A stretch of DNA of 52,506 nt from a virus (lineage: Duplodnaviria; Heunggongvirae; Uroviricota; Caudoviricetes). The notes under the pieces are model-generated. The model saw only the letters and a list, made by a program, of their open reading frames with translations, ran no database searches and was not told where the DNA came from. Below are positions 2,485-46,057 of the stretch, piece by piece. Every line of letters starts with the position of its first letter. Within the stretch, counting starts at the first letter, position 1. Where the stretch lies: positions 1 to 52,506 of the IMG/VR virus record IMGVR_UViG_2534681604_000014, one strand, 5' to 3'. The translations under genes were made by a program, and so were the position numbers.

Positions 2485-3678
2485 GTGACCTGGGACGATC
2501 ACAAGAAGAATTTTGCTCGCCTGGCGCGAGATGGTGGTTACACCATCGCACAGTATGCCGCCGAGTTTAATCTTAACCCTAATACCGCACGTCGTTATCT
2601 CCGTGCCTTCAAAGAAGACACCAGGACAGCGGACAGCCGCAAGCCAAATAAGCCAGTCAGGAAGCCACTAAAAAGCATGATCATTGATCACTCTAATGAT
2701 CAACATGCAGGTGATCGCATTGCGGCTGAAATAGCGGAAAAACAAAGAGTTAATGCTGTTGTCAGTGCCGCAGTCGAGAACGCTAAGCGCCAAAATAAGC
2801 GCATAAATGATCGTTCTGATGATCATGACGTGATCACCCGCGCCCACCGTACCTTACGTGATCGCCTGGAACGCGACACCCTGGATGATGATGGTGAACG
2901 CTTTGAATTCGAAGCTGGCGATTACCTGATAGATAACGTTGAAGCGCGGAAGGCCGCGCGCGCTATGTTGCGTCGGTCCGGGGCCGATGTTCTGGAAACC
3001 ACTCTTCTGGAAAAGTCTCTTTCTCATCTCCTTATGCTGGAGAACGCCAGGGATACGTGTATTCGCCTGGTGCAGGAAATGCGCGATCAGCAAAAAGACG
3101 ATGATGAAGGTACTCCGCCTGAATACCGTATCGCGAGCATGCTAAACAGCTGTTCCGCGCAGATAAGCAGCCTGATCAACACCATTTACAGCATCCGGAA
3201 TAACTATCGAAAAGAAAGCCGGGAGGCGGAAAAGCACGCTTTGTCTATGGGGCAAGCTGGCATTGTTAAGCTGGCATACGAACGAAAGCGTGAAAATAAC
3301 TGGTCAGTGCTGGAAGCAGCTGAATTCATCGAGGCGCATGGCGGGAAAGTGCCGCCCCTGATGCTGGAGCAAATCAAAGCCGATCTGCGTGCTCCTAAGA
3401 CCAATACCGATGATGAGGAAAGGCAAACAGCCGTCGGTGGCCCTTCTCTTGAAGATCTGGACAAAGTTGCGCGAGAACGGGCCGCCAACCGCCGCGCCGA
3501 TGCCGCATTGTGGATTGAGCAGCGTAGGGAAGAAATCGCCGATATCGTTGATACAGGCGGTTATGGAGATGTTGATACTGAAGGTGTATCAAACGACCCA
3601 TGGCTGGAACAAGACCTGGACGAAGACGAGGAGGAAGACGAAGAAGTTACCCGCAAGCTATACGGGGATGATGATTAA
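2485..3678 (+). CDS. pacA: terminase small subunit PacA
   Basis: 397-aa ORF, GTG start; sequence recognised as P1 PacA; contains the pac site. Confidence 0.95.
2678..2836 (+). other. pac packaging site (4 + 3 TGATCA/G hexamers, Dam GATC sites)
   Basis: Hexamers at 2678, 2685, 2697, 2712 and at 2808, 2820, 2831 flank an AT-rich centre inside pacA; this is the P1 pac architecture. Confidence 0.9.
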
Positions 3679-5162
3679 TGGCCAGAAGTTGCGTAACGGA
3701 CCCACGTTGGCGCGAGCTGGTGGCGCTATATCGTTATGACTGGATTGCGGCCGCTGATGTTTTGTTCGGCAAAACACCTACCTGGCAGCAGGATCTGATT
3801 ATTGAGTCTGTGCAGGAACAGGGTAGCAAGACATCTGTTTCGTCTGGTCACGGTACCGGGAAATCAGACATGACTTCTATCATGATCATGTTGTTCATAA
3901 TCATGTATCCCGGTGCCCGCGCCATTATCGTTGCGAACAAAATTCAGCAGGTAATGACCGGTATTTTCAAGTACATCAAGATAAACTGGGCTACTGCCAC
4001 CAGCCGTTTTCCATGGCTTGCTGATTATTTTGTTCTGACAGAAACCGCTTTCTATGAGGTTACTGGTAAAGGGGTATGGACAGTTGTACCGAAGGGCTTT
4101 CGTCTGGGAAGTGAAGAAGCTCTCGCAGGTGAACACGCAGATCATCTTCTGTATATTATCGATGAAGCCTCCGGTGTCAGTGATAGAGCTTTCGGTATCA
4201 TCACCGGTGCTCTTACCGGACAGGATAACCGCATCTTATTGCTGTCACAGCCTACACGCCCAAGCGGCTATTTCTACGATACTCACCATAAACTGGCCAA
4301 GCGTCCTGGTAACCCTGATGGCGTTTATACGGCGATCACGCTTAACAGTGAGGAATCACCGCTGGTAACGCCAGCATTTATCAAAATGAAGCTGGCGGAG
4401 TACGGCGGGCGTGATAACCCTATGTACATGATTAAGGTACGCGGCCTATTCCCTAAATCACAGGATGGCTTCCTTCTTGGACGTGATGAGGTTGAACGCG
4501 CAACGCGGCGGAAAGTCAAGATTGCCAAAGGATGGGGCTGGCTTGCATGTGTGGACGTTGCTGGTGGTACGGGACGGGATAAGTCCGTTATCAATATCAT
4601 GATGGTGTCCGGCCAGCGAAATAAACGCCGTGTAATCAACTATCGAATACTGGAATACACAGACGTTACAGAAACGCAGCTTGCCGCCAAAATTTTCGCA
4701 GAATGTAATCCTGAGCGATTCCCAAATATCACCATAGCGATAGACGGCGATGGCCTGGGTAAAGCAACGGCGGATCTGATGTACGAGTATTATGGTATTA
4801 CCGTACAGCGTATACGCTGGGGTAAAAAGATGCATAGCCGTGAAGATAAGAGCCTGTACTTTGATAAACGTGCTTATGCCAACGTTCAAGCCGCAGAGGC
4901 CGTAAAATCTGGTCGTATGAGACTGGATAAGGGTAATGAAACTATTGAGGAAGCGTCGAAAATTCCTGTAGGGATTAACTCCGCAGGTCAATGGAAGGTG
5001 ATGAGTAAGGAGGATATGAAGAAAAAACTCAACCTGCACTCACCAGACCATTGGGATACATATTGTTTCGCTATGCTGGCGGATTATGTTCCCCAGGATG
5101 AAGTGCTTAGCGTCGAAGACGAAGCGCAGGTTGATGAAGCTCTGGCATGGCTTAATGAATGA
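3678..5162 (+). CDS. pacB: terminase large subunit PacB
   Basis: 494-aa ORF, start overlaps the pacA stop (TAATG); P-loop-like GHGTGKS. Confidence 0.95.
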
Positions 5163-5743: not shown

Positions 5744-6855
5744 GAACGTCATTAGTCACCCGTGAAGAAATGATTGAGGCAATTGAACAGCACACAGCCT
5801 GTATCAGTACCAGGGATATACCGGGCGTTATTGCCAACTACTTCATGATCACCAAACAACTTTACCGGAGAAAGGACAAGAACGCGGTTCACCGCATTCT
5901 GCTAACCGATATCCGTGAATACCTGCTCGAACAGGGTCATCTGAATTACGCAACCGTCGCAGCCGAAGCACGCAAGGAGGCACACAGAATGAAAGCAACT
6001 AACGTTAAATCAGAAAAAATTCATGCAACTTCAGTTCAGGAATCAGAGCTGGTGGTTGTTCAGAATCAGTCTGATGAAATTCCCGTTCTGGAATGGCTGG
6101 GAGTGCGTGTAGTGACAACCAAGATCCTTGCTAAGGGGTATGGGACCGATGCGGATAACATCAAGAAGAACTTTTCCCGTAATGCCGAACGTTTTTGTGA
6201 AGGCAAGCATTTCTATAAAGTTATTGGAGATGATTTGAACAATTTGCGGGTGACTTTAAGTAACTCACAAAATCCCATCTCTCCTAAAGCCCGTTCACTC
6301 ATCCTCTGGACAGAACGCGGCGCTGCCCGTCACGCTAAAATGCTCGAAACCGATCAGGCATGGGCATTCTTTGAAAAACTGGAAGACAGCTACTTCCGGC
6401 AAAAAGAACAGCAACCGGTTGCAATCCCCCAAACATTACCAGAAGCCCTACGCCTGGCTGCCGAACTGGCTGAACAAAAGCAGCTTCTGGAACAGAAAGC
6501 CCACCAGCTAAATCAGCAGCTGGTAGCCGCCGCTCCTAAGGTCGATTTTGCCGACCGGGTATCAGTAGCTAAAGGGATCCTGATTGGGAATTTTGCAAAG
6601 GTTGTTGGACTTAAGCAAAACGCGCTGTTTGCCTGGTTACGGGAGAACGGCATCCTGATAGCGTCCGGCGGACGTAAAAATGTGCCATTCCAGCAGTACA
6701 TCAACGCCGGGTATTTCACTGTGAAAGAAGTGGTGCTAGATGATGAAGATGGCTACCAGATACGGCTGACGCCTCAATTAACGGGGAAAGGCCAGCAGTG
6801 GTTGACGCGTAAGCTGCTCGATGCTGGCTTGTTAAAACCGGTGGCGGCTGAATAA
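5740..6855 (+). CDS. antirepressor (AntA/ORF6N-like N-domain, KilAC-like C-domain), Ant1/Ant2-like
   Basis: 371 aa (about 42 kDa); internal in-frame ATG at 5989 with SD AAGGAGG gives 288 aa (about 32 kDa); C-terminal region looks like a KilAC/ANT domain. Confidence 0.65.
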   Translation: MRTSLVTREEMIEAIEQHTACISTRDIPGVIANYFMITKQLYRRKDKNAVHRILLTDIREYLLEQGHLNYATVAAEARKEAHRMKATNVKSEKIHATSVQESELVVVQNQSDEIPVLEWLGVRVVTTKILAKGYGTDADNIKKNFSRNAERFCEGKHFYKVIGDDLNNLRVTLSNSQNPISPKARSLILWTERGAARHAKMLETDQAWAFFEKLEDSYFRQKEQQPVAIPQTLPEALRLAAELAEQKQLLEQKAHQLNQQLVAAAPKVDFADRVSVAKGILIGNFAKVVGLKQNALFAWLRENGILIASGGRKNVPFQQYINAGYFTVKEVVLDDEDGYQIRLTPQLTGKGQQWLTRKLLDAGLLKPVAAE

Positions 6856-6887
6856 TGGAAGAATGCCCGGTTGATGCCGGGCATAAT

Positions 6888-7739
6888 TTATTGCGCGCTT
6901 TCGGGGTTGTCGTTTACTGGCTGCCCCTTCTTAGTTTTACGGCTGCGCGTAACTGATGCGGCTGACTTAACCTTTTTCTCTTCGCGAGTGATGGCAATTT
7001 GTTTTTTTACATTTTCAATATCTGCCAGGCGATATATTTTTGCCTGCGGCCAGCGGTCGCAGATGATCGGTTCTATGGAGTCATAAAGGCTAAATTTTGC
7101 TTTCTCGAATTCACCGTTGATGATGATTCCATCACGGAGAGTTTCATCGCAGATAAACACGCCACACAGCGGCACATGGTAACTAACTGATTTACCGTTA
7201 TTGTAGTTAGGACTACTGGAGATGTAGTGAACGCGCAGCATTGTTTCGCTAAAGCCGTGTACGCGCATACGGAATTTTTCATCCTCCGGGTACTGCTTCA
7301 TTAGCTCTTTTGTTGCTTCCAGGTTCTCTATGTATTTCGCACTGTGCTCATTGAACCCCGCGCTTTTTTGGATGCGAATGTCCTTATCAATCAGATGAAT
7401 AATGCGGCCAGCGGTCATGTTGACGCTGTTTACAGCTTCTGTCTGATAGGTCGTAACCTTACGCACACCGCGAAGGATGTTAGGCACAGGATATAAAATA
7501 GTCTTTGGGATATTGAGGTCTGGGTACTGTTCCAGTTCCCGCGCCATTAAAGTCCATTTATCAATTTCAGCCTGAATGCTGTCCGTTTCTTTGAACGGCA
7601 GAACGACAACCGGGCGTACAGGACGACCGTCGCTGGCGGCATCAACGTGTTGGGCGCGTGCAACAGCTTTTTTTAGAAAGAGATCCCTGAAGCTGACGAA
7701 CTCCTGGTACAGTTGTTCGCCGTAGACATAATTTATCAT
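6888..7739 (-). CDS. c1: C1 repressor of lysis
   Basis: 283-aa ORF recognised as P1 C1 (MINYVYGEQLYQEF...); strong SD GGAGGAGG upstream. Confidence 0.95.
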   Translation of the reverse strand: MINYVYGEQLYQEFVSFRDLFLKKAVARAQHVDAASDGRPVRPVVVLPFKETDSIQAEIDKWTLMARELEQYPDLNIPKTILYPVPNILRGVRKVTTYQTEAVNSVNMTAGRIIHLIDKDIRIQKSAGFNEHSAKYIENLEATKELMKQYPEDEKFRMRVHGFSETMLRVHYISSSPNYNNGKSVSYHVPLCGVFICDETLRDGIIINGEFEKAKFSLYDSIEPIICDRWPQAKIYRLADIENVKKQIAITREEKKVKSAASVTRSRKTKKGQPVNDNPESAQ

Positions 7740-34432: not shown

Positions 34433-36348
34433 GCCGCTACCCCCGCTTTCTGGATTGCTACCAACAGATCAGCCAGGTGGCGAGCTGCGCCGTTAACCAG
34501 CTCTTCGTTTTCCTCAAAACGTCCGGCAGCCTGAAGGGCTGCAATCGCTTCCCGGACATTGCCCCGGGCGTTACGGATCTCCGCCATGTCAGTGCTTTGC
34601 ATATCCATCACGTTATTGAGATATTCAATGGCTTTATTAGCCTCTGCATCTGCTTCGCTAACCGTTTCATCAGGCTGTTCCGGGACCGGTTCTGGTTGAG
34701 TAATCTGACCGACTTCGGCCTGCAATGCATTGATCATGCTCTGCACCATTTTCTCGGTGCCAGCGCCCCCAGGAAACGCAATATTGGGGAAAGTTTTTTG
34801 AAACTGAGTTTTCAGCATTACGCGGAACTCGTCTGGTGAGCTGGTGGCCAGCTCCAGAGCTTTTTGTGCAAATTTGCCAAACGGACCATTAGTAAGTGTC
34901 TTCGCCAGGAAGTCGAAAGAATCCTCGCGAGGCAATAACTTCAGGTCGTACTCACTCATTTGCTGATCAGAAAGCGGGGTATCGTAAGTAGCAATGCCGT
35001 AGCGTGCATATTCATAATACGGGTCACCTTCATCAGGGCGCGGCAGAATTGCTTTGTTACCTTCAGGTATTGCGCCAGGGGCCGCCGGACGCATTTGCAG
35101 GGCATATCGATATGCACCTACAGAGACTTCTGGTTCAGGCGAAGAGCTACCGGTATCCTCCGCTGGTTCAGGCTCGACGTTTTCCGGTTTATGTTCTTCT
35201 GGTTGGACCAGGTATTCCGATACATTACCCGCTTTATAGGCTTTAAACAGCTTGCCGATCGCATCTGCCATGTCCACACCCTGTATGGATTTAGCCTTGA
35301 TCATGTACACGCTGCCATCCGAATCGGTTAACTGGATATACCCTTCGCCATCCCCAATGAATTGCTTCATTGATGCACCATTACTGAGCGTCACTTCCCC
35401 GTTCATATGCATACGATTTTTGATGCTGGCAAGGCGATCCGTCAGCGCGCGAGAGTGCCCACCAGTCATCCCCGCTGGAGCAATGGTATCGCGCCCACCA
35501 GTGCGATTGAGCTGATCAATCTCCGCCTGCAAACGCTCATTTTCTTGATAAAGAGAATCTGCTTCCGAAGCAACCGCGTTAATTTTCTGCTCCAGATCTG
35601 CCTTCTGGCCTTCTACCGCTGCCACCTGATCCGCGAGGTCGCTCATAGCATCCTCTTTCTGGTCACTGTCAGCCTGTAGTTGGGTTATTTCATCAACCAG
35701 GGCTTTTTTCTTCTTCTGCGCACGCTGGAATTTTGCCGAGTTTTTCTCTGCAAGGTTGGCAAGTTTCATGGTGACCTGCGCCAGCGTCATATCACGGCCA
35801 CTCATCGGAGCAACGGTGTGAGTAACGTCTTTTTTATTCAGTAAGAACTGGAAAGCAACCAGCGTATCGCTATTGGTGATCCGGTTTTCCGCTGTCGGGC
35901 TATGAAACAAAATGCTGATAGTCTGACCATCACTGAGCGGAATAATGGCTGGCAGGACCGGCAGACCATTAACGTTACGTGCCCGGCCAATTTCAGCGCC
36001 GCCGATCGCGCGCGCGCCGCTCTGGGCCACATCCCCCGTTTTATCACTCCCCGCAGAGATTCCGGTACCATTCAGCTTCTGGTTCAATGCCCGGACAAAT
36101 GCCTGCATAGTCCGGTGTAACTGCAAACGAGTAGAGCTAATCGCCTCCAGTAAATCCGTAGCACACCAGTGGATCGGCGTGTCATAGAAGAACGTAGCCT
36201 CGATTTCCTCCAGGGTGTTGGATTCCGTCATCAGATAGCGGTCCTCACCGGCCATTAATGCGCGATATTCATCATCAGTCACCGGCGGGGGAAGCACGTC
36301 AAGCCCAGGCTTAATCGTCACCCCTTTATTGATATTGAACTGTTCCAT
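34429..36348 (-). CDS. darA: DarA (packaged anti-restriction protein)
   Basis: 639 aa, size and position match P1 DarA. Confidence 0.75.
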   Translation of the reverse strand: MEQFNINKGVTIKPGLDVLPPPVTDDEYRALMAGEDRYLMTESNTLEEIEATFFYDTPIHWCATDLLEAISSTRLQLHRTMQAFVRALNQKLNGTGISAGSDKTGDVAQSGARAIGGAEIGRARNVNGLPVLPAIIPLSDGQTISILFHSPTAENRITNSDTLVAFQFLLNKKDVTHTVAPMSGRDMTLAQVTMKLANLAEKNSAKFQRAQKKKKALVDEITQLQADSDQKEDAMSDLADQVAAVEGQKADLEQKINAVASEADSLYQENERLQAEIDQLNRTGGRDTIAPAGMTGGHSRALTDRLASIKNRMHMNGEVTLSNGASMKQFIGDGEGYIQLTDSDGSVYMIKAKSIQGVDMADAIGKLFKAYKAGNVSEYLVQPEEHKPENVEPEPAEDTGSSSPEPEVSVGAYRYALQMRPAAPGAIPEGNKAILPRPDEGDPYYEYARYGIATYDTPLSDQQMSEYDLKLLPREDSFDFLAKTLTNGPFGKFAQKALELATSSPDEFRVMLKTQFQKTFPNIAFPGGAGTEKMVQSMINALQAEVGQITQPEPVPEQPDETVSEADAEANKAIEYLNNVMDMQSTDMAEIRNARGNVREAIAALQAAGRFEENEELVNGAARHLADLLVAIQKAGVAA

Positions 36349-36349
36349 G

Positions 36350-36961
36350 TTAATTTCCTGCTTTCAGTTGCTTAAGACGGCGTTTTAGTTCGCCATTTCG
36401 GGCCTTTTCGTTATTGAGTCGGCCCGTCTCCTTATCCAGCTTCGCCCGCAAATCGGTGATCTGCTGTTGATTGAAAGACACCGAGTTCTGCGCGGACTTA
36501 TAAGCGGCAGCCACCTGAGCATTCCTCTGTTTTGCCTCTTGAAGGCGCTGAAAATTGGATTTAACTGCCGGTTTCTTGTCTACCGGATTGGCAACACGTT
36601 TCGCTTTGGCGATCAGTGATTTCTGGAATTTTGCGGAGTTTTTGCGGGCCGCTTGCCCCATGACGGCACCAAGCGTCTTGATATCCGGCGACTGAGCGTT
36701 AGGAATAGCTTTTCCATTCAGTTTCACAGACGATATATCGCCAGTATCGTTTACCTGTATGGCAAGAATTTGTCCGTCGTTAAGAACCAGCTTTGCGGTT
36801 TTAACTTTAACGCCATCTTTCGTTGTTGCGCGGTTGCTGGAGTCAACCTCAATCACCGTCACACCGGTTTTATTGATCGCCGTGATAAGGGATTTCAGCC
36901 CCTTTTCATTAACCTGGTCAAAATCGACCGTTGCATACTTATTTTTCGTCATCTGACACAT
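36350..36961 (-). CDS. hdf: Hdf (head morphogenesis, dar operon)
   Basis: 203-aa ORF immediately upstream of darA. Confidence 0.6.
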   Translation of the reverse strand: MCQMTKNKYATVDFDQVNEKGLKSLITAINKTGVTVIEVDSSNRATTKDGVKVKTAKLVLNDGQILAIQVNDTGDISSVKLNGKAIPNAQSPDIKTLGAVMGQAARKNSAKFQKSLIAKAKRVANPVDKKPAVKSNFQRLQEAKQRNAQVAAAYKSAQNSVSFNQQQITDLRAKLDKETGRLNNEKARNGELKRRLKQLKAGN

Positions 36962-37382
36962 CCTGTGCGAGATTTATTACGTAACTTCTGCGGATTTGCT
37001 GAGTAACAGGGAAAATCCGATACAACGGGTTAATGAACGAGTCGCCATGCGTAACCATGACGTTGAAATGCCACAGCCGTTCTCCTTTACCCATATATTC
37101 AGTGGGTATGTATAACCATTCGCTGTTTTCGCCCTGTTCAGCCGATGTCAGACAACGTTGCTCGCCTTCAATCACTGTCGTCGGCTTCTGAACATCGCGG
37201 ATCCAATACCTGACCGTTGCGCCGCGCAAAAAAGGAAATTTGGACCGGTATTTGAACGGCACCCGGATGAAGCCCGGTTTAATTTCCACTTCACCAAGCT
37301 CTAAATTCGTGATGTCCTTGCGTTTTAGCAAATAGCGATCGGCTAAGGCTAACGCAAGAGCGCATACACCCCAGCCAATCAT
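36939..37382 (-). CDS. lydB: LydB antiholin
   Basis: 147-aa ORF downstream of lydA with a 4-nt overlap. Confidence 0.6.
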   Translation of the reverse strand: MIGWGVCALALALADRYLLKRKDITNLELGEVEIKPGFIRVPFKYRSKFPFLRGATVRYWIRDVQKPTTVIEGEQRCLTSAEQGENSEWLYIPTEYMGKGERLWHFNVMVTHGDSFINPLYRIFPVTQQIRRSYVINLAQDVSDDEK

Positions 37383-37708
37383 TTCCCGCCTCCCTTTTTC
37401 ACCAAACTTGTAAGAACATTCAGAATGCTATCGATATTCACTCGTTTCATCCCTGAAATCACCTCATGACCGTTATTGCTGGCTATCGTTACCATTAAGT
37501 ACGTAATTGATAACTCCCAGCCCTCGTGTTGCCCCAATAGGTACGCCACCGCGCCAGCTGTCACTGCAACAAAGATCTCCGTAACCAATCCCAACAAATT
37601 GCCAGACTGGCGACCGTCTCGGACATCCATCAGGAACGTGCCTATCCCACCAATTACTGAAAGCAGGAGCGCAATAGCAACTGGAGCTAATTCCTGTGTG
37701 TCAAGCAC
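37379..37708 (-). CDS. lydA: LydA holin
   Basis: 109 aa with hydrophobic transmembrane segments and a basic C-terminus. Confidence 0.65.
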   Translation of the reverse strand: MLDTQELAPVAIALLLSVIGGIGTFLMDVRDGRQSGNLLGLVTEIFVAVTAGAVAYLLGQHEGWELSITYLMVTIASNNGHEVISGMKRVNIDSILNVLTSLVKKGGGK

Positions 37709-37775
37709 AAGTTCCCTCCTACGTTGTCAGGAGGTAATGGTATGCAAAGTAACTTCTCAACCGGTCATTTGTTGC

Positions 37776-38126
37776 TTAAGAGGCATTTCTATTGAGGTAC
37801 GAATCGATAAGCCTTTGTAACCTTTCAAGAATGAGCCTGTGATTGACGCTGCAAATAAGAATCACGCAATTCTGAAGGCTTTCATCCATCCCCTTATATT
37901 CCGCGAAATACATGCCTATAAAGCCTGCAAGTACGGCGGAAATACACTCGGCCAACAATTGCCTGCATGACGCTTCGTAACGTTTTTCACGAACCCCATT
38001 CAGAAACGAATTCACTCCGCCAAAGATAGATATAAATAAAATTGTTAAGTCAAACATAAAAACCTTGCCAATTTTGAGTTGAACATCATTGGGGAACGGT
38101 ATGCACTTTGTGATTTCCACACACAC
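37776..38126 (-). CDS. small membrane protein (holin-like)
   Basis: 116-aa ORF with hydrophobic segments; first gene of the lyd/dar operon. Confidence 0.4.
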   Translation of the reverse strand: MCVEITKCIPFPNDVQLKIGKVFMFDLTILFISIFGGVNSFLNGVREKRYEASCRQLLAECISAVLAGFIGMYFAEYKGMDESLQNCVILICSVNHRLILERLQRLIDSYLNRNAS

Positions 38127-38184
38127 TGGTTTTTGTTAATTAAAATCCGCAGCTTGCTATAAATAACGATAGTGAGCAGAAAAT

Positions 38185-38424
38185 ATGCTAATAGGCTATG
38201 TACGCGTATCAACAAATGAACAAAACACTGCTTTGCAACGAAATGCCCTTAAAAGCGCAGGATGTGAGCTAATTTTTGAGGATAAGGCGAGCGGCAAAAA
38301 GGCTGAACGCCCTGGGTTAAAAAAGGTTCTGCGTATGCTTTCCAGAGGTGACACCCTGGTCGTATGGAAGTTAGAGCGTCTTGGGCGCAGCATACGTCAC
38401 TTGGTTGTGCTGGTGGAAGATTGA
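38185..38424 (+). pseudogene. cin: truncated cin invertase (N-terminal 79 aa only)
   Basis: MLIGYVRVSTNEQNT...DTLVVWKLERLGRS is the catalytic N-terminus of a Hin/Gin/Cin serine invertase; ends after about 79 of about 186 aa, so the DNA-binding C-domain is missing. Confidence 0.8.
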
Positions 38425-38660
38425 AAAGTTAGCAGTTATCACAGCTACCCGATCACTATCCGGAGCAATGAAGAAGATAGCGAGAATGGAAGAAAACACC
38501 TAACAATTTGATACATGATATTTTTACACGAAGAGCGAAACTCCTTTTGCAGGAAATGGTCGCAATTACCTTTATGATGAAGGGTTGTCAACAGTTATTC
38601 TATTTTTTATAATCCACAAAAAACAATTCAGGGTATTTTATATAAAAGTCAAGGCAACAT

Positions 38661-39203
38661 ATGGATATTGATTTTCTTAAAGAGTGTCTCCTAGTTGAAG
38701 TTATTGGTGGGGGTAATAAACAATTCTCATGGCCTCGCGCCATTCGCCATGCCTGGCGGCAACCTAAACGCAGGTTTCTTTTTTGGTGGCGTATAGCATC
38801 TTATCTATATGATATGGACAACAAATATCTAAAAAAACTCGGAAAGAAAATTAACAGAAATTTATCCTTTAAATACAATACTGATATTGAACTTGGAGCA
38901 TCAATAGCTCCTGGATTATATATTGGACATTATAGTGGTATTGTTATTACAAGATATGCAACGATTGGTAGAAATTTTAATATAAGGCAAAACACAACTA
39001 TTGGTTTAAAAAATTCTAACACTAACAGAGTTACTATTGGAGATAATGTTAATATTGGAGCAAACTCCTGTATAATCTCAGACCACATCACTATAGGTGA
39101 TAATGTAAAAATAGGGGCTTTTACCTTTGTAAATAAAGATATACCTTCAAATTCAACTTATTACACCAAGAAAATCAATATATGCAAGGAAAGGGAGGCG
39201 TAG
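38661..39203 (+). CDS. hexapeptide-repeat O-acetyltransferase
   Basis: 180 aa; left-handed beta-helix hexapeptide repeats; GC content clearly lower than flanking sequence. Confidence 0.75.
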   Translation: MDIDFLKECLLVEVIGGGNKQFSWPRAIRHAWRQPKRRFLFWWRIASYLYDMDNKYLKKLGKKINRNLSFKYNTDIELGASIAPGLYIGHYSGIVITRYATIGRNFNIRQNTTIGLKNSNTNRVTIGDNVNIGANSCIISDHITIGDNVKIGAFTFVNKDIPSNSTYYTKKINICKEREA

Positions 39204-39224
39204 CCCCCCCTTCTTTACTATTTG

Positions 39225-39620
39225 ATATGAATCGGTATAGGTTCTGGCGACAAATTCAGCCGCATGAATATGTGAGGCGGTATTAACCTGATAGGTGTCT
39301 TCTCCAAGAAGGTATCTTCCCTTCAGCACAATTGCATATTTTTTGCCTGCACTAAGTGCAAGGGAGATATCCTTACGGTGTTGAATAGTTACCTGATAGA
39401 ATTCGCCAATAACCACTGACGCCGCGCCAGCGGTTTTATCACCATCCAGTGAGGTGATTAACAGGTTCATCCCACCGCCAGGCTTCGGCAGGAAACCGGC
39501 ATAAAATCCTGGATCAACAATTCCCCTGAATTTTCGGTTTAGCGCGGCTGACAGATATGGTTCGTGGTATTGCACATCAGCCACCAGAGCCAGTGACTCG
39601 GGCGATGGGTAAGTAACTGA
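39225..39620 (-). pseudogene. orphan 5-prime fragment of tail-fibre gene S (codons about 10-140)
   Basis: About 88-90 percent nucleotide identity to 42843-43241; lacks the S start codon region and diverges after ...TYTDSYQ. Confidence 0.8.
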
Positions 39621-39718
39621 TTAAACTCAACATCACAATTTTCCTATGGTGTATCTGACGGTTCGTCGGGATCTATTTTTGCGAGCGGGGTTTACTGGAT
39701 AGCAATTGGATACTAATT

Positions 39719-40144
39719 ATGAAAGAAGAGAACATTTATTATTATAGTGCTGAAAACAATGCATTTTATCCATTAGTTCTAAAACCTGATTATGAGGATG
39801 CAGGAACTTGGCCTTCTGACGCTGTTCCTATATCTCACTCATGGTATACGCAGTTGTTAGAGCAACAGGCAAATGGACAAGTCATTAAACCGAATGAATA
39901 TGGACAACCTGTTCTTACCGATCCTCCGCCCCCTTCAGTTGAAGATTTAAAACGACAGGCGGAAAACATTAAGGTACAACTCCTTGCTGAGGCTGAATCT
40001 GCCATATTACCGCTGGAACGAGCCGTCAGACTGAATATGGCAACAGATGAGGAACGTATAAGACTTGAGTCATGGGAACGCTACAGCGTTCTGGTCAGTC
40101 GTGTGGATACTACAAATCCTGAATGGCCTGATAAACCGGAGTAA
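39719..40144 (+). CDS. tail fibre assembly chaperone (U-prime-like)
   Basis: 141 aa; convergent with U; no tail-fibre ORF upstream of it. Confidence 0.65.
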
Positions 40145-40152
40145 GCTTATAG

Positions 40153-40175
40153 GGCAGGCTGAGCCTGCCTTTCTT
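40153..40175 (+). terminator. stem-loop between convergent tail fibre assembly genes
   Basis: GGCAGG-CTGAG-CCTGCC followed by TTTCTT. Confidence 0.5.
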
Positions 40176-40184
40176 ATTCACACA

Positions 40185-40709
40185 TCACACGTCAGGTGAT
40201 ACGGGCCATTCAATTGTATTGTAAGTCTGCTCATCGGTTATTCCGATAAAATCCATAGACTCTAAACTCTGGATATACAACATCCAGTTAAGTAACTTTT
40301 CTTTATCGCTTTCACTTATTATTCCAAGAGACAGATATGTCTTCCAGTTTGAGACTCTGCTTTCGGCCTCCACAAGTAACTCTTTGCGTTTACTTTCAGC
40401 TTTCTCTGTATAATTAACAGGGATTGGCTTTATTTCATTTTCATCGAAATACCAACCTTTATTTATATCGAAATCCTCCGGCAAATAATCTGTTTCCACA
40501 ACACTGAAACCATTAGGAAATAGTCTGGAAACATCCTCTGAAATAGAGTGAATCACTCCGGTAACTGGATGCACACAAAATTTGTATTTTTTTGTGAATT
40601 TGTCTAATGATTCATAAAAATCTTGACCATCTTCACTTTGAAAATACTGTACCCCTTCACCATATGGCATGTCATCGGGATAATATCGTGAAATATTTTT
40701 TAGTTCCAT
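40185..40709 (-). CDS. U: tail fibre assembly protein U
   Basis: 174 aa from ATG 40709 (MELKNISRYY...), directly downstream of S. Confidence 0.65.
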   Translation of the reverse strand: MELKNISRYYPDDMPYGEGVQYFQSEDGQDFYESLDKFTKKYKFCVHPVTGVIHSISEDVSRLFPNGFSVVETDYLPEDFDINKGWYFDENEIKPIPVNYTEKAESKRKELLVEAESRVSNWKTYLSLGIISESDKEKLLNWMLYIQSLESMDFIGITDEQTYNTIEWPVSPDV

Positions 40710-40719
40710 TCCTGACTCT

Positions 40720-43263
40720 CTATCCGGTAATTGTTCGCCATGCACCATTAATATAAATCTGTATGGGTTTATATTTAATGAAGTCCATTTTATCGCCACC
40801 ATCAACGAATGTTACAACACAACCAGCCGGAGCAGTTGTTGCATGTTGCACTTCCGCTCCTAATTGAATATTTTGTATATATCTCGAATCAAAATTACCA
40901 TAATCAGTGGGCGTCACTCTGCCTGTGACATTGATTGGCTTATTACTTTGGAGTGCTCCTGGCTGGAAACGGAATACATGCTGGCTATTTGCATAAACAT
41001 CAAGAATGCCATCACCGTTCTGTTTAAAGCCCGTGTCATTATCGCCTAAAACGATAGAGTTTCCGCCGAGAGCGTTCGCTACCCCCAGTCCAACGCCACC
41101 ATTAATTACAGCCCCATTATTAATATCAACGCCATTTCCAAGCGCCACTCGCCCTGTGTCATTTCTAAACGAAAACGGGCGCAAGCTATTCCATCCACCA
41201 AGCTGATCACCTGATGCTGTAACTAATAAATATGTTAATGAGCCGTCATTTCGAAGGAATACTCCGTAATTTCCGTATACGGCACGGAATGCATTTGCAG
41301 TCCTGGAAACCACCTCGCCATTAACACTCATTGTAATAGAGTTATCAGTGTTTCTCTGGCTGTAAAAGTGATATCCCTTCTCATCTTTTAATTCAATAAC
41401 CGTTGGCCTTGATGAACTACCCCATATTTGCATATAAGTATTCAGTGACAGAGTTTCAGTAGTCTGCACCCTGAACACTTTCCCGTTTGAATTTTGAAAA
41501 CCAAGTGGTCCGGTTAAAGTTCCTCCGGTTAATTTCAAAAAGAGCGCATCAATCCAGCCCTCAAATCCAGCTTTCTTGATATACAGGTTGCCATCATTCG
41601 CCAGAATGCCACCACCTGGCGTTCTTAATGGTTGCGATATATTAGCCAAAGTCAGCAATCCCGTCATTGAATCGCCATCCCGACTGAAATCGCGTCTCCA
41701 TCCTGGCGCATAAGCGTCACCGTGGTTGATGTAGGTAAACTGAGCCTTGACAGTTCCACCATTGGTTGCCGTCGTAGGGGTAGTGATGCGAATCGTCATA
41801 GCACCCCGAACCCCCATAACCTCAACTACAGCGCCAGAAAGTTGTATATTCCCACAACCGGTATCCGTGATGATTTTATTGGCAGCGTAAGCCCAGGAGC
41901 CTTTGCACATCCAGTATGGATGATTGAACGCCCCTTGAGACTCCAGCCACTCGATAAATTGCGCCGTCGTCCAGTTATTGCTGTCTCCTCCGATGCTGAT
42001 ATTGCCGCTGGCAGCTTTTGCTGCACCAATATTTCTGACAAATAAATTTTTGTCGGGAATATCTGCGCCGTTCTGGTTTTTCTGCAATGCGCCAGACGCC
42101 AGGTTGACTGATTCTCCTAAACCAAGGTATTGGATAATGGCCTGGGTACTACTTTTAGCAAGAATATCCCGTCCAACTGGCGTCAAATCAGTCTGAGCAA
42201 CAGTATCTTTTCCTGTAAAGTAAGGAAGTTTATTTGCACCTGTTGGTAAACCAGCCAAAGCAGTTAACGTCGCATCCAAAGGCTGTTTACCTGCCAGGGC
42301 ATTTGTCATCGTGGTAGCAAAGTTCGGATCATTGCCAAGCGCCTCAGCTAACTCATTCAGAGTATCCAGAGCTTCAGGCGATGAACCGACCAATGCAGAT
42401 ATAGCAGCTCTTACATAAGCGGTTGTAGCAATCTGCGTATTGTTCGTACCCTGTGCCGCAGTAGGCGCGGTTGGCGTTCCTGTCAGACTCGGGCTTTCTA
42501 TTGGCGCTTTGGTATCAGCAAGATCTTTTACAGACTTAACGGCTTTAGGGGTCGCCGCCATTGTTTCGCTGTCGCTGTTAGTTTCGCTACTGAGCTGAAC
42601 TAATCCCTTTTGCGTTGTGCTTGCATCCTGCGCCGTATACTTGCTTTTCGCCAGATCGTAGGCTTTTTTAACCGCCAGCGAACTTGCAGCAACATCACTT
42701 CTGGTACTGGTTACAGAGTCTGAAATATCAATGCCGATCGTACGGTTGATACGCTCGGATGTATCAATCATCTCCTGGGTAATGGCAGATACACCAGCAG
42801 GAATATTCACCGTACAAACAAGCAGCTCTCCATCTCCTAACTGATATGAATCGGTATAGGTTCTGGCAATAAATTCAGCCGCATAAATATGTGACGCTGT
42901 ATTAACCTGATAGGTATCTTCTCCAAGGAGGTATCTTCCCTTTAGCACAATTGCATATTTCTTACCTGCGCTAAGTGCAAGAGAAATATCCTTACGATGC
43001 TGAATAGTTACCTGGTAGAATTCACCAATATCCACTGACGCTGCGCCAGCAGTTTTATCACCATCCACTGAGGTGATTAACAGGTTCATCCCACCACCAG
43101 GCTTAGGTAAGAAACCGGCATAAAATCCAGGATCAACAATTCCCCTGAATTTTCGGTTTAGCGCGGCTGACAGATATGGTTCGTGGTATTGCACATCAGC
43201 CACCAGAGCCAACGACTCGGGTGATGGGTAAGTAACCGATGTGACAACTGTAACGTCATTCAT
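40720..43263 (-). CDS. S: tail fibre protein S
   Basis: 847 aa from ATG 43263 (MNDVTVVTSVTYPSPESLALVADVQYHEPYL...), RBS AAGGA upstream; the 40720..43350 ORF-track start is rejected. Confidence 0.85.
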   Translation of the reverse strand: MNDVTVVTSVTYPSPESLALVADVQYHEPYLSAALNRKFRGIVDPGFYAGFLPKPGGGMNLLITSVDGDKTAGAASVDIGEFYQVTIQHRKDISLALSAGKKYAIVLKGRYLLGEDTYQVNTASHIYAAEFIARTYTDSYQLGDGELLVCTVNIPAGVSAITQEMIDTSERINRTIGIDISDSVTSTRSDVAASSLAVKKAYDLAKSKYTAQDASTTQKGLVQLSSETNSDSETMAATPKAVKSVKDLADTKAPIESPSLTGTPTAPTAAQGTNNTQIATTAYVRAAISALVGSSPEALDTLNELAEALGNDPNFATTMTNALAGKQPLDATLTALAGLPTGANKLPYFTGKDTVAQTDLTPVGRDILAKSSTQAIIQYLGLGESVNLASGALQKNQNGADIPDKNLFVRNIGAAKAASGNISIGGDSNNWTTAQFIEWLESQGAFNHPYWMCKGSWAYAANKIITDTGCGNIQLSGAVVEVMGVRGAMTIRITTPTTATNGGTVKAQFTYINHGDAYAPGWRRDFSRDGDSMTGLLTLANISQPLRTPGGGILANDGNLYIKKAGFEGWIDALFLKLTGGTLTGPLGFQNSNGKVFRVQTTETLSLNTYMQIWGSSSRPTVIELKDEKGYHFYSQRNTDNSITMSVNGEVVSRTANAFRAVYGNYGVFLRNDGSLTYLLVTASGDQLGGWNSLRPFSFRNDTGRVALGNGVDINNGAVINGGVGLGVANALGGNSIVLGDNDTGFKQNGDGILDVYANSQHVFRFQPGALQSNKPINVTGRVTPTDYGNFDSRYIQNIQLGAEVQHATTAPAGCVVTFVDGGDKMDFIKYKPIQIYINGAWRTITG
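42843..43241. repeat. direct repeat copy (5-prime end of S) matching 39225-39620
   Basis: Same-orientation homology of about 395 bp, with a run identical over about 70 bp (43141-43210 and 39520-39591). Confidence 0.8.
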
Positions 43264-43274
43264 CAAGCATATCC

Positions 43275-43709
43275 TTATGCTGTAGTCGTGTTTATGGCCA
43301 TAACTGCGGTATATGTTTTGCCCACATACAGCGAGTCTTCCTGGACACAAATAATGGCGATTGGCTTGTTCTCGTTATCCAGAACAACCAGAGTGTTGAA
43401 TGGGTAGTTTTTCCCTTCCTGCAACTGGCTTTGATCAAGGTCCATTCGGACAGTAATTATCCCACCTGAGTAGGTTGGCACGAGGTTGATGGTGCAAAAT
43501 TGACTGGTTAGTTCTGCCAGATCGAAAGCCTTTGGCAGTTCTCCAATCTCATAAGTGCCATCTCCTTTCTTAGTAACCAGCGAACTGGTACCGAAAACGG
43601 CCTTGCTGATTAAAAATCGAGAGCCTTTGTTAATGGACGATTCAGCGCGCCGCTGATAGTAATAGTCCAACAACTGACTCTTATAGAGGTTTGTTGAGAC
43701 GTCAGACAT
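43275..43709 (-). CDS. R: tail fibre structural protein R
   Basis: 144-aa ORF immediately upstream of S. Confidence 0.6.
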   Translation of the reverse strand: MSDVSTNLYKSQLLDYYYQRRAESSINKGSRFLISKAVFGTSSLVTKKGDGTYEIGELPKAFDLAELTSQFCTINLVPTYSGGIITVRMDLDQSQLQEGKNYPFNTLVVLDNENKPIAIICVQEDSLYVGKTYTAVMAINTTTA

Positions 43710-43787
43710 GATTTTCCCTAATCAATGTTGTGAAGCCTCATTGTAAGATAAGTAACTTGTCACCCCGCCCTACGGACGGGGTGATTG

Positions 43788-44627
43788 TCAGGCGTCGCTA
43801 TCCAGCAACAAATCATCTGCGCGTGTGCGATCAAACGTAGGTGTCGCTTTCACAATAGTGCCACCAGGCGTTGCGGTGATCGGGGCGCTAATCGACGTAA
43901 CTCCAGTAAGCGAAGTTGTATCCGAAGTTTCAAACCAGCAGAATGCTTTTTCGGTATCAGAAATCTCGTTCAAAGTGATCATGTCGGCCTGTTCATTTAC
44001 AACAACCGACAAATAGAGCGTAAGCCCATCAAACACTATATGCAGTGGCAGTAGAGGCTTTACGAACTGATTAAACTTTCTGAGAATTTCTTCTGTAATT
44101 GCAGACTGATCTATCGTGCCAGTAATACCCATTGTCCTGGCCAGGTCGTTTATGGGAATACTGATCATCCCTCTGGAAGTCAGAAACATCTCGCCGAATG
44201 TGCCGCCGGTAGTCTCCAGTGTGCTTTCTGGTATTAGAACTGTGCCATAGGGATGACGCTCAAGGTCCACCGGTGCATATATCGGATCCCATAAAACAGA
44301 AATACCGTTAAATTCGCGGTAAATTGTCTGGTTTATAGGACGTTCAGTTCCCTTAAAGTGGATCTCATCAAGCCGCTGTTGTAACAACATCGGAACGGAA
44401 GATGAGTTCGAGGTTCTGATAGTAAAGAACTGGCCAAGTTCATTTGTCCTGGTCTCCAGATCCTCCTTGCTCATGGAGAAAATAGACTTCCGGTTGGTAA
44501 TTCGCTCCAACCATGGGTCAACAAAGGTGTCCATCATTGACTGAACCAAATCAGCCAATGATTTATAGAGCAATGACTTTTGCTTAGCTGATGTAAGCCG
44601 GTTATTAAACCAGGAACGCTGCATCAC
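43788..44627 (-). CDS. baseplate/tail morphogenesis protein
   Basis: 279 aa; 4-nt overlap with the upstream gene. Confidence 0.55.
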   Translation of the reverse strand: MMQRSWFNNRLTSAKQKSLLYKSLADLVQSMMDTFVDPWLERITNRKSIFSMSKEDLETRTNELGQFFTIRTSNSSSVPMLLQQRLDEIHFKGTERPINQTIYREFNGISVLWDPIYAPVDLERHPYGTVLIPESTLETTGGTFGEMFLTSRGMISIPINDLARTMGITGTIDQSAITEEILRKFNQFVKPLLPLHIVFDGLTLYLSVVVNEQADMITLNEISDTEKAFCWFETSDTTSLTGVTSISAPITATPGGTIVKATPTFDRTRADDLLLDSDA

Positions 44628-46057
44628 TCCTCCTCATACGAAATATTAAAGGTGGAGTTTTCTGTATCCAGATAAACGAAATCGTAAAAGCCGTTGGACT
44701 CATTCCACTCGACAAATTCCAGATAAAAAGTCGCGGAAATAACCCAGCGTTTCGATAAACGCCCAAACGTCTTTTTCTTAATCAGGATGTACTTTCCGAC
44801 GCGGTTCGGATCAAAGAAAGTTGAGTCGCGCCCAAATTTTGTTTCCAGTGCCGACTTCAGCTCATCGGTCACATTCTCAATGGTCAGGCTTGCCGATATC
44901 CGTCCGGTGATGGTTATCTTAAATGGTAGTTTTCTGACCTCTTTATAAGAGAATTTCTTGTTCAACTCATTCGGCACCTTCTTAAAGGCAGCCAGGATCA
45001 TTTCTTCAAGCTCTGACTGGCTTTTATTTGGATGCCATCCTGAAATAAATATCTTATTGATATTCTGAACATTATAAGCACCATCTAATTTCTCTTGCTG
45101 GCCTTCGCCCCATGCCTTTACCCAGGACAGTCCCGGGATGTTACGCACCAGAAAATACGTATAGTCCCCGCCCCATACGACCTGATCATCATAGGCAAGG
45201 TAATATTGTGCACGGTTACGTGTGATCTCCGTTGTTTCGGCATCGGTACCGGCGGTTATAGGTGTCGTTGTCTTAACTGAAATCGAGTTGGCTAAATTAG
45301 CCGCAGAATCGACAGGCGTCAGGTTTTGGCCAGCAACAAGGGTTATATCTCCGTTGGTGCACCATACCTTAAGTGTAATGGTCGAGCCTTCTGGCGGTAT
45401 TTGCCCAATTAGCCCATCACCGAATCGAACCCCCAACTGCTCGGATGGTTTATAAAACTCAACGTAGACCTGGCTTTTACTACCGGCTAACCGGAACATA
45501 GTGCTGGAAGACCACTGCGTGGTCTTACCATCGGTCGTCACGAATACTTCCAGCTTATAGCAGACAGCAGTGAGAGCCTTTGATAACACGACTTCCAGAA
45601 ATTCTTTGGCTGCCGTAACGGTATATGTCACCTCCTGGATTTCCAACTGTGCCACTTCTACCGTACCGGTGCCGTCAACCAACCTGCATACATCCATAGT
45701 CATGTAAGGGTACTGGTCGTCAGATATTAAAGGCATGTTTTTGGGGATTACCGCTGGGGCATCTTCACTTGTGGCGGTGATCTCAATCATCCCCGATGAC
45801 GGTGTTGGCTTGGTACCAACGTAACTATTCGTTTCTGCCGCTGCCAGGATAGAGGAACGCCGCGTCGCGGTCGATATAAAGCCTTCAGCCAGCGCCGCAT
45901 CGGCATACTGAAAGCACCTGTAGACAATCTGGGTAATAAACAATGTCAGCATCGAGACAAATTGAGAGCCGACAAACTTCGACCAGAATGAATCTTTCTC
46001 GACAAGCTCTTCAAACTCTGCACGAATACTGTCTTTAGTCGGTGTTGTTTTACTCAT
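44624..46057 (-). CDS. baseplate J-like protein
   Basis: 477 aa; operon position between the gp25-like gene and the tail fibre genes. Confidence 0.55.
   Translation of the reverse strand: MSKTTPTKDSIRAEFEELVEKDSFWSKFVGSQFVSMLTLFITQIVYRCFQYADAALAEGFISTATRRSSILAAAETNSYVGTKPTPSSGMIEITATSEDAPAVIPKNMPLISDDQYPYMTMDVCRLVDGTGTVEVAQLEIQEVTYTVTAAKEFLEVVLSKALTAVCYKLEVFVTTDGKTTQWSSSTMFRLAGSKSQVYVEFYKPSEQLGVRFGDGLIGQIPPEGSTITLKVWCTNGDITLVAGQNLTPVDSAANLANSISVKTTTPITAGTDAETTEITRNRAQYYLAYDDQVVWGGDYTYFLVRNIPGLSWVKAWGEGQQEKLDGAYNVQNINKIFISGWHPNKSQSELEEMILAAFKKVPNELNKKFSYKEVRKLPFKITITGRISASLTIENVTDELKSALETKFGRDSTFFDPNRVGKYILIKKKTFGRLSKRWVISATFYLEFVEWNESNGFYDFVYLDTENSTFNISYEEE

Follow-up and report, generated by a model that had tools for sequence, protein, structure and literature searches.

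A decayed tail-fibre inversion switch of the Cin/C-segment type in a P1-like phage-plasmid, with a probable recombinant origin and a fibre-linked acetyltransferase gene

The locus described here, located in a window of 52,506 bp (the whole stretch of IMG/VR record IMGVR_UViG_2534681604_000014 that was analysed), consists of remnants of a tail-fibre inversion switch of the Cin/C-segment type, carried by a P1-like phage-plasmid. Very probably it is a former switch fixed in one orientation, formed by recombination between two P1-like types, in which the acetyltransferase (AT) gene is a fibre-linked moron; this confidence is placed jointly on the lost switch, the recombinant origin and the role of the AT. 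The features of the locus, in window coordinates, are as follows.

38185..38424, plus strand: cin', 5' stub of the Cin serine invertase gene, a pseudogene of 79 codons
38421..38574, no strand: spacer between cin' and the AT unit, 154 bp
38575..39212, plus strand: AT moron unit, with a promoter-like site at 38585-38613 and a CDS at 38661-39203 (180 aa)
39223..39621, minus strand: stray foreign S fragment (codons ~9-141 of the constant part, Sc), 399 bp
39622..39717, plus strand: 3' remnant of Sv', last 31 codons plus stop, collinear with p18B226LT3 from 4717 on
39719..40144, plus strand: U', tail-fibre assembly chaperone (Caudo_TAP, all 131 model positions, E = 4.4e-28; phrog_188)
40185..40709, minus strand: U, tail-fibre assembly chaperone of the expressed fibre (Caudo_TAP; phrog_136, full length)
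40720..43263, minus strand: S, complete tail-fibre gene, an open ORF of 847 aa with Phage_fiber_2 and Gp34_trimer domains
42115..42134, plus strand: solitary cixR inside S, TCCTAAACCAAGGTATTGGA, with one mismatch to the P1 cixR core
43275..43709, minus strand: R gene (43275..43758 together with LPs)
43740..43758, minus strand: late promoter LPs, which drives R-S-U; exact P1 LPs 19-mer at 43740

The order and orientation of lydC, cin, Sv', U', U, Sv, cixR, Sc and R are those of the P1 Cin/C-segment, a system whose relatives include Gin/G of Mu, Pin/P of e14 and Hin of Salmonella. The surrounding backbone is collinear with that of P1 at high identity, as in a Punavirus, with 95% nucleotide identity over lydB-cin, including the 5' part of cin and its flanks, and 94.7% over Sc-R-16 and its R-16 region; cixR is one base off the P1 core. 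The closest complete plasmid, the 99-kb sister pRHB17-C14_2, encodes P1-type replication, partition, lysis, head and tail genes. The differences from P1 lie within the switch, where cin ends at codon 79, cixL is gone, Sv' is 31 codons long and extra DNA (the AT gene and the stray S fragment) is carried instead, and the segment is predicted to be unable to invert. While the odd joining of a duplicated S 5' fragment to unrelated low-GC DNA could point to an assembly chimera or other artefact, the probability of this is practically negligible, as a 1,651-bp stretch occurs at 99.3-99.9% identity in five complete plasmids that were assembled independently. The same architecture is seen in these five plasmids, which come from E. 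fergusonii and E. coli of UK farm and other faecal sources.

The preliminary description of this DNA had proposed that cin ends after 79 codons and that host-range switching has been lost, and both proposals are borne out by the components of the locus. The stub ORF (38185-38424) matches only positions 2-87 of the 145 in the Pfam Resolvase model (E = 2.3e-25), and in the alignment to the P1 cin region that the description had suggested, position 38420, corresponding to cin nucleotide 236, is the last with nucleotide homology to P1 cin or to the intact gene of p18B226LT3. The part of P1 Cin from residue 80 to 186 is missing, and with it a full-length serine invertase with both its catalytic and its C-terminal HTH DNA-binding domain. 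An intact cin elsewhere, which had been named as grounds for rejecting the loss, was found in neither the window nor pRHB17-C14_2, where tblastn with the Cin proteins of P1 and p18B226LT3 recovered the stub alone. Likewise, the inverted pair of cixL and cixR is broken. The solitary cixR is the sole cix-like site at up to five mismatches in the 52.5-kb window, and the complete sister plasmid also holds one site and no partner at up to four mismatches; the search recovered both sites in P1, JL22 and p18B226LT3. Two alternative fibre ends with their chaperones are no longer present, as Sv-U and U' are intact and Sv' is cut to its last 31 codons, in keeping with the earlier observation that U' has no Sv' ORF upstream. 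Inversion would be impossible, because a second cix site and another Cin homologue are both absent from the window and the closest complete plasmid, and the phage is predicted to be limited to a single fibre set, R-S-U, driven by the LPs promoter, which is intact, because cin is reduced to 79 codons, cixL and nearly all of Sv' are lost and cixR stands alone.

The recombinational enhancer of P1, which corresponds to cin nucleotides 19-90, is kept at about 95% identity, though its retention is moot because the invertase and the second site are gone. Cin-family invertases cross-complement, and with cixR and the enhancer region in the 5' part of cin retained, the switch could in principle still work through an invertase of the Pin, Fin or Min type acting in trans on cixR and a cryptic partner. 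This is highly improbable, as the searches of the window and of the sister plasmid returned no second cix-like site at the thresholds given above and the 31 codons of Sv' leave nothing to switch to.

The stub differs from the cin of p18B226LT3 by three amino acid changes (E23K, D64E and M70I) that arise from five nucleotide differences, whereas the intact cin genes compared are 6-12 nucleotides apart with no amino acid change; sister copies of cin' have a stop at codon 5, and the stub appears to be drifting as a pseudogene. The convergent arrangement of U' and U, both Caudo_TAP proteins, is as first described. U' is 98.5% identical to its counterpart in p18B226LT3, has a terminator-like hairpin (39654-39670) immediately upstream and would be an intact but silent orphan whose upstream fibre gene is gone. 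The 525-bp U gene is annotated alike in p18B226LT3 and in locus L005, and S is of equal length in both. For annotation, the consequence is that cin' and the S fragment are pseudogenes, U' is an orphan and one fibre type only is encoded. The stray S copy, the Sv' tail and the solitary cixR had been overlooked in the preliminary description.

It should be noted that this type of switch decay is already known, and the present case is tidy but ordinary. In the P1-like plasmids pSvP1, pTZ20_1P and pJIE250-3, only the N-terminal catalytic part of Cin is left or the C-segment is altered, and a loss of tail-fibre switching was inferred (Venturini et al. 2019, PMC6906374). IS elements account for most of those rearrangements, whereas none is present at this locus, whose lesion is a recombinant patch with the AT gene and for which both parental types can be identified.

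These types are represented by p18B226LT3 (L004) and by the IMG/VR contig UViG_2913167280_000003 (L190). The former has an intact switch, with a cin of 190 aa, cixL, an open Sv', U', U, S and cixR, and its Sv' frame is open between cixL and a stop that matches the stop of the remnant in the window. Relative to this sibling, 1,795 bp (p18B226LT3 2922-4716) have been exchanged for 1,201 bp. The IMG/VR contig has the same cin'/AT junction, a tail-fibre assembly gene (tfa) 16 bp past the AT stop codon and a full S, and the 20.5 kb examined contain a single cix. Identity to the two types is split by block: positions 37000-38184 are 100% identical to p18B226LT3 and 92% to the IMG/VR type, 38185-39621 are 98.5-99.6% identical to the IMG/VR type, and 39622-44700 are 92-99.8% identical to p18B226LT3. 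Because of this split, we infer that the window is a recombinant of the two parental types rather than the product of a cargo insertion in situ, with a backbone of the p18B226LT3 type and a 1.4-kb patch from the IMG/VR type. Further to the left, at positions 36000-37000, the IMG/VR type is the nearer match (99.7%, against 97.3% for p18B226LT3), and the backbone is therefore more mosaic than a single patch would make it.

The preliminary description had held that a receptor-modifying cargo gene took the place of host-range switching. The AT gene does stand in the place of the lost switch, but it was not inserted into the switch of this plasmid, because the identical junction at cin nucleotide 236 occurs on two further backbones, pPSS-10_3 and UViG_2913167280_000003; nor is it a substitute for switching, because JL22 carries an AT from this family alongside intact cin, cixL and cixR. 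An insertion of an AT cassette into the plasmid's own functional switch, deleting the 3' part of cin, cixL and Sv' in one event, would fit the exchange of 1,795 bp for 1,201 bp at exactly this spot and the low GC content of the replacement DNA. It is nevertheless distinctly unlikely, since the junction, the 154-bp spacer and the AT gene are found together on those two other backbones, cin' is 99.2% identical to the IMG/VR type against 97.9% to the relative of the flanking backbone and carries the three amino acid changes of the IMG/VR type, the 399 bp of S within the patch match the donor's S at 98.5% identity, and no terminal inverted repeats or target-site duplications flank the 802-bp low-GC segment or the 1,201-bp patch. 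The lack of such repeats, together with the absence of a transposase ORF, also disposes of a transposon or IS insertion.

The recombinant reading would involve one parent like p18B226LT3, which shares the S/U/U'/Sv' module and whose switch is intact, and a second that was already locked, as in UViG_2913167280_000003, with lyd, cin', the 154 bp and AT followed by tfa and S on the opposite strand. The patch at 38185-39621 would derive from the second parent after the loss of tfa and of S from codon 142 to the end, an order of events that is putative. The left crossover may have occurred in homologous DNA at or near the start of cin, and the right junction, from S codon 9 to the Sv' tail, would be illegitimate. 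The stray S fragment ends abruptly on both sides and shares 98.5% identity with the 5' part of S in the IMG/VR contig (14219-14617), compared with 93.5% for p18B226LT3 and 92.5% for the window's own S (42842-43240); this difference rules out that the 5' end of the resident S was recently duplicated in tandem. The 154-bp spacer is confined to one haplotype, that of pPSS-10_3, the IMG/VR contig and the window lineage: pPSS-10_3 was the sole match in distant blastn against E. coli genomes, and blastn and tblastx against all fetched loci gave just the same-haplotype copy in that plasmid. As such, the locus is a well-resolved case of a P1-like tail-fibre region rebuilt, in all probability, by recombination among co-circulating relatives, both parental types of which are still open to sampling.

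The low-GC segment of about 800 bp with a hexapeptide-repeat acetyltransferase, as first described, measures 802 bp (38421-39222) at 34.0% GC, against 46.5% for the window, and contains the intact 180-aa ORF at 38661-39203. The AT unit is 82.6% identical in nucleotides, over exactly 38575-39212, to a chromosomal prophage remnant of E. albertii, and the promoter-like site (TTGTCA-17-TATAAT, 11/12 matches) is kept together with the gene in the E. albertii copy. The protein scores 34.4 bits against the Pfam Hexapep model (cut-off 27) and belongs to phrog_2154, annotated in PHROG as of function unknown, with residues 2-178 aligned to positions 5-181 of the 185-position profile (E = 9e-69). A GHYSG motif aligns with DHATG of CysE, its histidine is invariant in 34 homologues, and a dN/dS of 0.05-0.10 against homologues shows the gene to be under purifying selection. 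That the AT might be a conserved P1 gene, the other finding that would have overturned the initial reading, is not the case, with neither P1 nor P7 among the 25 of 62 phage records listed. The Acyl_transf_3 family (PF01757) has no match in the AT, which is predicted to be a cytoplasmic LbH enzyme, unlike the classical phage O-antigen acetyltransferases (Oac/OafA), which are membrane proteins of the Acyl_transf_3 type. NeuO of prophage CUS-3 (of the LbH type) and Oac of Sf6 or OafA (of the Acyl_transf_3 type) are prophage-encoded, lysogen-expressed acetyltransferases that alter the polysaccharide to which the phage adsorbs. The AT resembles NeuO in being an LbH enzyme, but a particular sequence kinship with NeuO was not detected: none of the 60 of 63 PDB matches listed is named as a polysialic-acid or capsule O-acetyltransferase. 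It differs from Oac and OafA in the absence of the Acyl_transf_3 domain. A role in a defence system was discarded, as PADLOC gave no family at E <= 0.01.

Many records annotate the AT as a serine acetyltransferase, and it could be a true serine O-acetyltransferase, an auxiliary metabolic gene for cysteine synthesis with no link to a receptor. The best PDB sequence matches are CysE enzymes (E = 1.9e-11) and the histidine aligned to DHATG is invariant. Even so, the nearest NCBIfam models, EpsC, CysE and WcaB, are all under cut-off, with 71.2 bits against 210.65 for TIGR01172 (cysE), 44.5 against 397 for NF008349 and 82.7 against 150 for EpsC, and the gene neighbours are glycosyltransferase, gtr and tail-fibre genes rather than cys genes, so a metabolic role is unlikely. 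The alignment covers just the C-terminal half of the CysE chains, and at 180 aa, against about 273 aa for CysE, the AT presumably lacks the N-terminal domain and C-terminal tail of that enzyme. The AlphaFold2 model has a mean pLDDT of 76.7, with the LbH fold weakly modelled (pLDDT 62-77 there), and Foldseek against the PDB returned only weak serine-acetyltransferase matches (best E = 1.1e-3, TM 0.35), so that the structural route yielded no more than the sequence had. A serine acetyltransferase of unknown role is also the published description of the family (PMC9603915, PMC6456863).

The neighbourhoods of the AT point instead to surface glycans and tail fibres. In 35 of 73 IMG/VR viral loci the gene lies tail-to-tail with a tail-fibre assembly gene, against one of 19 species-representative genomes; an adjoining tfa is absent in about half of the viral loci (n = 73). 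The tail-to-tail arrangement occurs in phiNP, a Salmonella Mu-like prophage, JL22, Ro157c2YLVW, yong2, 613R2 and pPSS-10_3, and no paper found describes a linkage of AT and tfa. Chromosomal homologues adjoin a GT2 glycosyltransferase or, in one case, a gtrB/gtrC-like pair with an Acyl_transf_3 gene. The P1-like Punavirus phages JL22 ('sacF') and vB_EcoM-Ro157c2YLVW have an LbH acetyltransferase of the same family, at 52% amino acid identity, in the tail-fibre region. They differ from the window in that cin, cixL and cixR are intact in JL22, with the AT paralogue inside the invertible segment, and in that lydC, cin and Sv' were lost from Ro157c2YLVW through another deletion; the role of the JL22 acetyltransferase was stated to be unknown (PMC9603915). 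In the Citrobacter rodentium phage phiNP, ORF4-ORF5-ORF6 encode an SAT, a Tfa and a receptor-binding protein (RBP), and the AT, 82% identical to that of the window, is directly tail-to-tail with the 192-aa Tfa. In contrast to the window, phiNP is a myovirus present as an integrated prophage; it has Mu-like baseplate genes and lacks an invertase. Its RBP binds Glc-II of the LPS outer core, in a paper where the AT goes unmentioned (PMC9659904), and another paper names the AT solely as a 'fitness' cargo gene (PMC6456863).

It is plausible, given these gene neighbourhoods and the LPS-core receptor of phiNP (PMC9659904), that the AT modifies a surface glycan or the LPS core. The AT would be a self-promoted moron of family phrog_2154, most likely made in the lysogen, that may O-acetylate a cytoplasmically assembled surface glycan, with the LPS core as the prime candidate, and would thereby alter the receptor for the fibre type with which it normally travels; in the window, it is separated from its usual tfa and fibre. 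A broader reading, which is tentative and on present evidence somewhat doubtful, would make phrog_2154 a widespread lysogenic-conversion partner of a modular RBP-Tfa cassette, a cytoplasmic LbH enzyme with its own promoter, convergent to tfa, that O-acetylates the receptor of the linked fibre, either LPS core or another glycan, for self-exclusion. Such self-exclusion would block re-adsorption, and the AT and fibre module would shuttle between Mu-like prophages and P1-like phage-plasmids, sometimes inside an invertible segment. The family has not previously been described as such a partner. Compared with the locked switch, the AT is the more useful lead, as a conserved phage family that sits beside tail-fibre assembly genes in about half of the viral contigs carrying it; should it modify the receptor, it would be a simple, testable determinant of host range and exclusion, with relevance to the spread of resistance genes by phage-plasmids and to the engineering of receptor-binding modules. 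The Tfa of pPSS-10_3 shares 71% identity with that of phiNP and 90% with that of the IMG/VR parental type. The AT copy of pPSS-10_3 is frameshifted, and the gene is therefore dispensable.

The locus is a well-resolved case of a decayed invertase switch within a mosaic tail-fibre region. The window is a P1-like phage-plasmid. Identity to P1 reaches 95% across lydB-lydA-lydC and the 5′ part of cin and 94.7% across Sc-R-16, and the nearest complete record, E. coli plasmid pRHB17-C14_2 (98.3% over 10 kb), has the typical P1 gene set for replication, partition, lysis, head, and tail. P1-like plasmids with a lost or truncated cin and C segment have already been described (PMC6906374), and the cin-Sv′-U′-U-S region is a recognized hypervariable hotspot (PMC9603915).

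Features of the tail-fibre region
39223–39621 (− strand): stray copy of S codons ~9–141, with abrupt ends
39622–39717: Sv′ remnant coding for the last 31 Sv′ residues
39719–40144 (+ strand): U′, a Caudo_TAP gene
40185–40709 (− strand): U, a Caudo_TAP gene
42115–42134: solitary cix site within S, one mismatch to the P1 cixR core

The truncation of cin stands as proposed in the preliminary description, with an open reading frame of 79 codons (38185–38424) that covers only positions 2–87 of the 145 in the Resolvase model and P1 homology that ends at 38420, cin nucleotide 236. The intact cin genes of P1, phage JL22, and E. fergusonii plasmid p18B226LT3 differ at 6–12 of 234 nt with no amino acid changes, while five differences in the stub produce three (E23K, D64E, M70I), and codon 5 is a stop in sister copies; the stub reads as a decaying gene. 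No partner for the cixR site occurs in the entire window with up to five mismatches allowed, and the same search recovers both sites in P1, JL22, and p18B226LT3 and one site only in pRHB17-C14_2. Searches (tblastn) with two Cin proteins returned the stub alone from the window and the 99-kb sister plasmid. With a decaying stub, a single cix site, and no other Cin, inversion is therefore impossible and switching has been lost, as had been suggested.

The convergent, opposite-strand arrangement of U′ and U and the lack of an Sv′ open reading frame ahead of U′ were likewise borne out, though the stray S copy, the Sv′ remnant, and the solitary cixR site had been overlooked. Inversion is impossible, the late promoter LPs persists upstream of R (an exact match to the P1 19-mer), and neither S (847 aa) nor U is damaged; the element should therefore make a single fibre type. 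The stray copy and 42842–43240 form 399-bp direct repeats (92.5% identity, ~3.6 kb apart), and homologous recombination between them would remove U′, U, and most of S to leave a fibre-less derivative. The E. fergusonii RHB44-C21 plasmid (L001, NZ_CP099329.1) has the same order of cin stub, acetyltransferase, S fragment, U′, and U; at its position 8727/8728, window position 40826 is joined to 52175, followed by the last 332 bp of the window at 100% identity. This plasmid thus locally lacks ~11.3 kb (S, R, baseplate, and tail-tube genes) and is probably a defective derivative.

Plasmid p18B226LT3 shares S, U, and U′ with the window and has a complete switch (190-aa cin, cixL, open Sv′ frame, and cixR); relative to it, 1,795 bp (cin 3′ end, cixL, and most of Sv′) have been swapped for 1,201 bp. 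Its Sv and Sv′ form a 1,248-bp inverted repeat of ~91% identity (L004 3240–4487 against window 40888–42135), about twice the 0.6 kb of the P1 repeat; differences between the two fibres are confined to about the final 100 residues and to their chaperones. The swapped DNA matches a 91-kb IMG/VR contig (UViG_2913167280_000003) in which the junction at cin nucleotide 236 is identical and leads into the 154-bp spacer and an acetyltransferase of 99% identity, followed on the opposite strand, 16 bp past the stop codon, by a 192-aa tfa, then full-length S and R, with one cix site only in the 20.5 kb examined. The stray S fragment resembles the 5′ portion of the contig's S more closely (98.5% identity) than the window's own S (92.5%).

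Identity of window blocks to p18B226LT3 and the IMG/VR contig
37000–38184: p18B226LT3 100%; contig 92%
38185–39621: p18B226LT3 97.9% (cin stub) and 93.5% (S fragment), spacer and acetyltransferase absent; contig 98.5–99.6%
39622–44700: p18B226LT3 92–99.8%; contig absent, or 85–96%

These blocks suggest that a p18B226LT3-type plasmid took up a patch from an acetyltransferase-bearing element whose switch was already locked and which would also have lost tfa and S from codon 142 to its end. The left crossover would have fallen within homologous sequence close to or at the start of cin. The right junction would be illegitimate, showing no more than a single base of microhomology. Farther to the left the backbone is itself mosaic, and no transposon signature was found at the patch flanks. 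The proposal that the acetyltransferase was inserted locally into the switch does not hold, as the same junction occurs in the contig and also in E. coli plasmid pPSS-10_3; the truncation is therefore old and shared. An assembly artefact is ruled out because the architecture is found in five independent complete plasmids. The 154-bp stretch between the stub and the acetyltransferase promoter region (38421–38574) has no detectable relative beyond the same haplotype and includes the tail of an open reading frame ending ...KKIARMEENT*.

The low-GC segment noted previously is real (38421–39222; 802 bp; 34% GC against 46.5% for the window) and encodes an intact 180-aa hexapeptide-repeat protein, an LbH enzyme and a full-length member of phrog_2154, a phage family of unassigned function. 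It evolves under a dN/dS of 0.05–0.10 against homologues at 79–89% identity, and the 86 bp upstream, with a strong sigma-70-like site (38585–38613, 11/12 matches), are conserved along with the gene in a chromosomal copy from E. albertii. There was no defence-system match, and structure prediction with fold search added nothing beyond the sequence evidence. A perfect 14-nt inverted repeat (38665–38678/39168–39181; codons 2–6 and ~170–174) is probably a chance product of AT-rich DNA, since the E. albertii and phiNP homologues encode other residues there.

Homologues lie tail-to-tail with a fibre assembly gene in phiNP (82% identity), a Salmonella Mu-like prophage, Hafnia phage yong2, phage 613R2, pPSS-10_3, and the P1-like phages JL22 and vB_EcoM-Ro157c2YLVW, and this arrangement with tfa occurs at 35 of 73 testable IMG/VR loci compared to 1 of 19 species-representative genomes. 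No published description of the linkage was found; JL22's 'serine acetyltransferase' has been noted in the fibre region with its role stated as unknown (PMC9603915), and phiNP ORF4 appears among 'fitness' cargo genes (PMC6456863). In JL22 (L022, 1875–7336), a 52%-identical copy ('sacF') is flanked by U′ and tfa within an invertible segment that appears functional, with cin intact and both cixL and cixR present, such that its orientation relative to its flanks would flip at every inversion. The acetyltransferase and the switch are therefore not alternatives. Ro157c2YLVW (L023, 3982–5930 and 7409–7428) represents an independent switch loss by a different deletion, which removed lydC, cin, Sv′, and part of U′ and kept the acetyltransferase and tfa; its remaining cixR has a changed central core, AAATCAAGG. 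In pPSS-10_3 (L002, ~6480–7030) the acetyltransferase is frameshifted near codon 63, so at least one lineage can do without it; next come tfa and a truncated, foreign fibre gene, both syntenic with the Salmonella Mu-like prophage (74% nt identity).

Chromosomal homologues form small islands with glycan-modifying genes. In C. rodentium (L009, 6964–8570) the neighbour is a GT2 glycosyltransferase, between yejM and narP, and in another enterobacterium (L020, 3086–7585) a gtrB/gtrC-like pair (gtrB-like and GT_STM0557-like) and an Acyl_transf_3 gene lie with the homologue next to icd, the e14 attachment locus. The LPS core is put together on the cytoplasmic side of the inner membrane and would thus be within reach of a soluble LbH enzyme. 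In phiNP, the fibre whose gene neighbours the acetyltransferase binds LPS outer-core Glc-II (PMC9659904). On gene association only, the tfa linkage, glycan-gene neighbours, phiNP binding, and core accessibility lead to a tentative preference for an enzyme that would be expressed in the lysogen, O-acetylate a glycan or the LPS core, and so change the receptor used by its usual companion fibre, a reading given somewhat under even weight. The chief competing reading is a genuine serine acetyltransferase; the protein aligns with CysE structures over their C-terminal half and conserves a catalytic-type His, but it fails the family cut-offs, with the nearest curated models (EpsC, CysE, and WcaB) all far below threshold, and the architecture test. 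A conserved uncharacterised acetyltransferase family riding with phage fibre-chaperone modules is a modestly interesting by-product. In a Salmonella prophage (L014, 7261–7980), a 239-aa open reading frame with a DXD-like motif (YFDIDVVV) and no Pfam match on record lies directly upstream of the homologue and may encode a glycosyltransferase partner.
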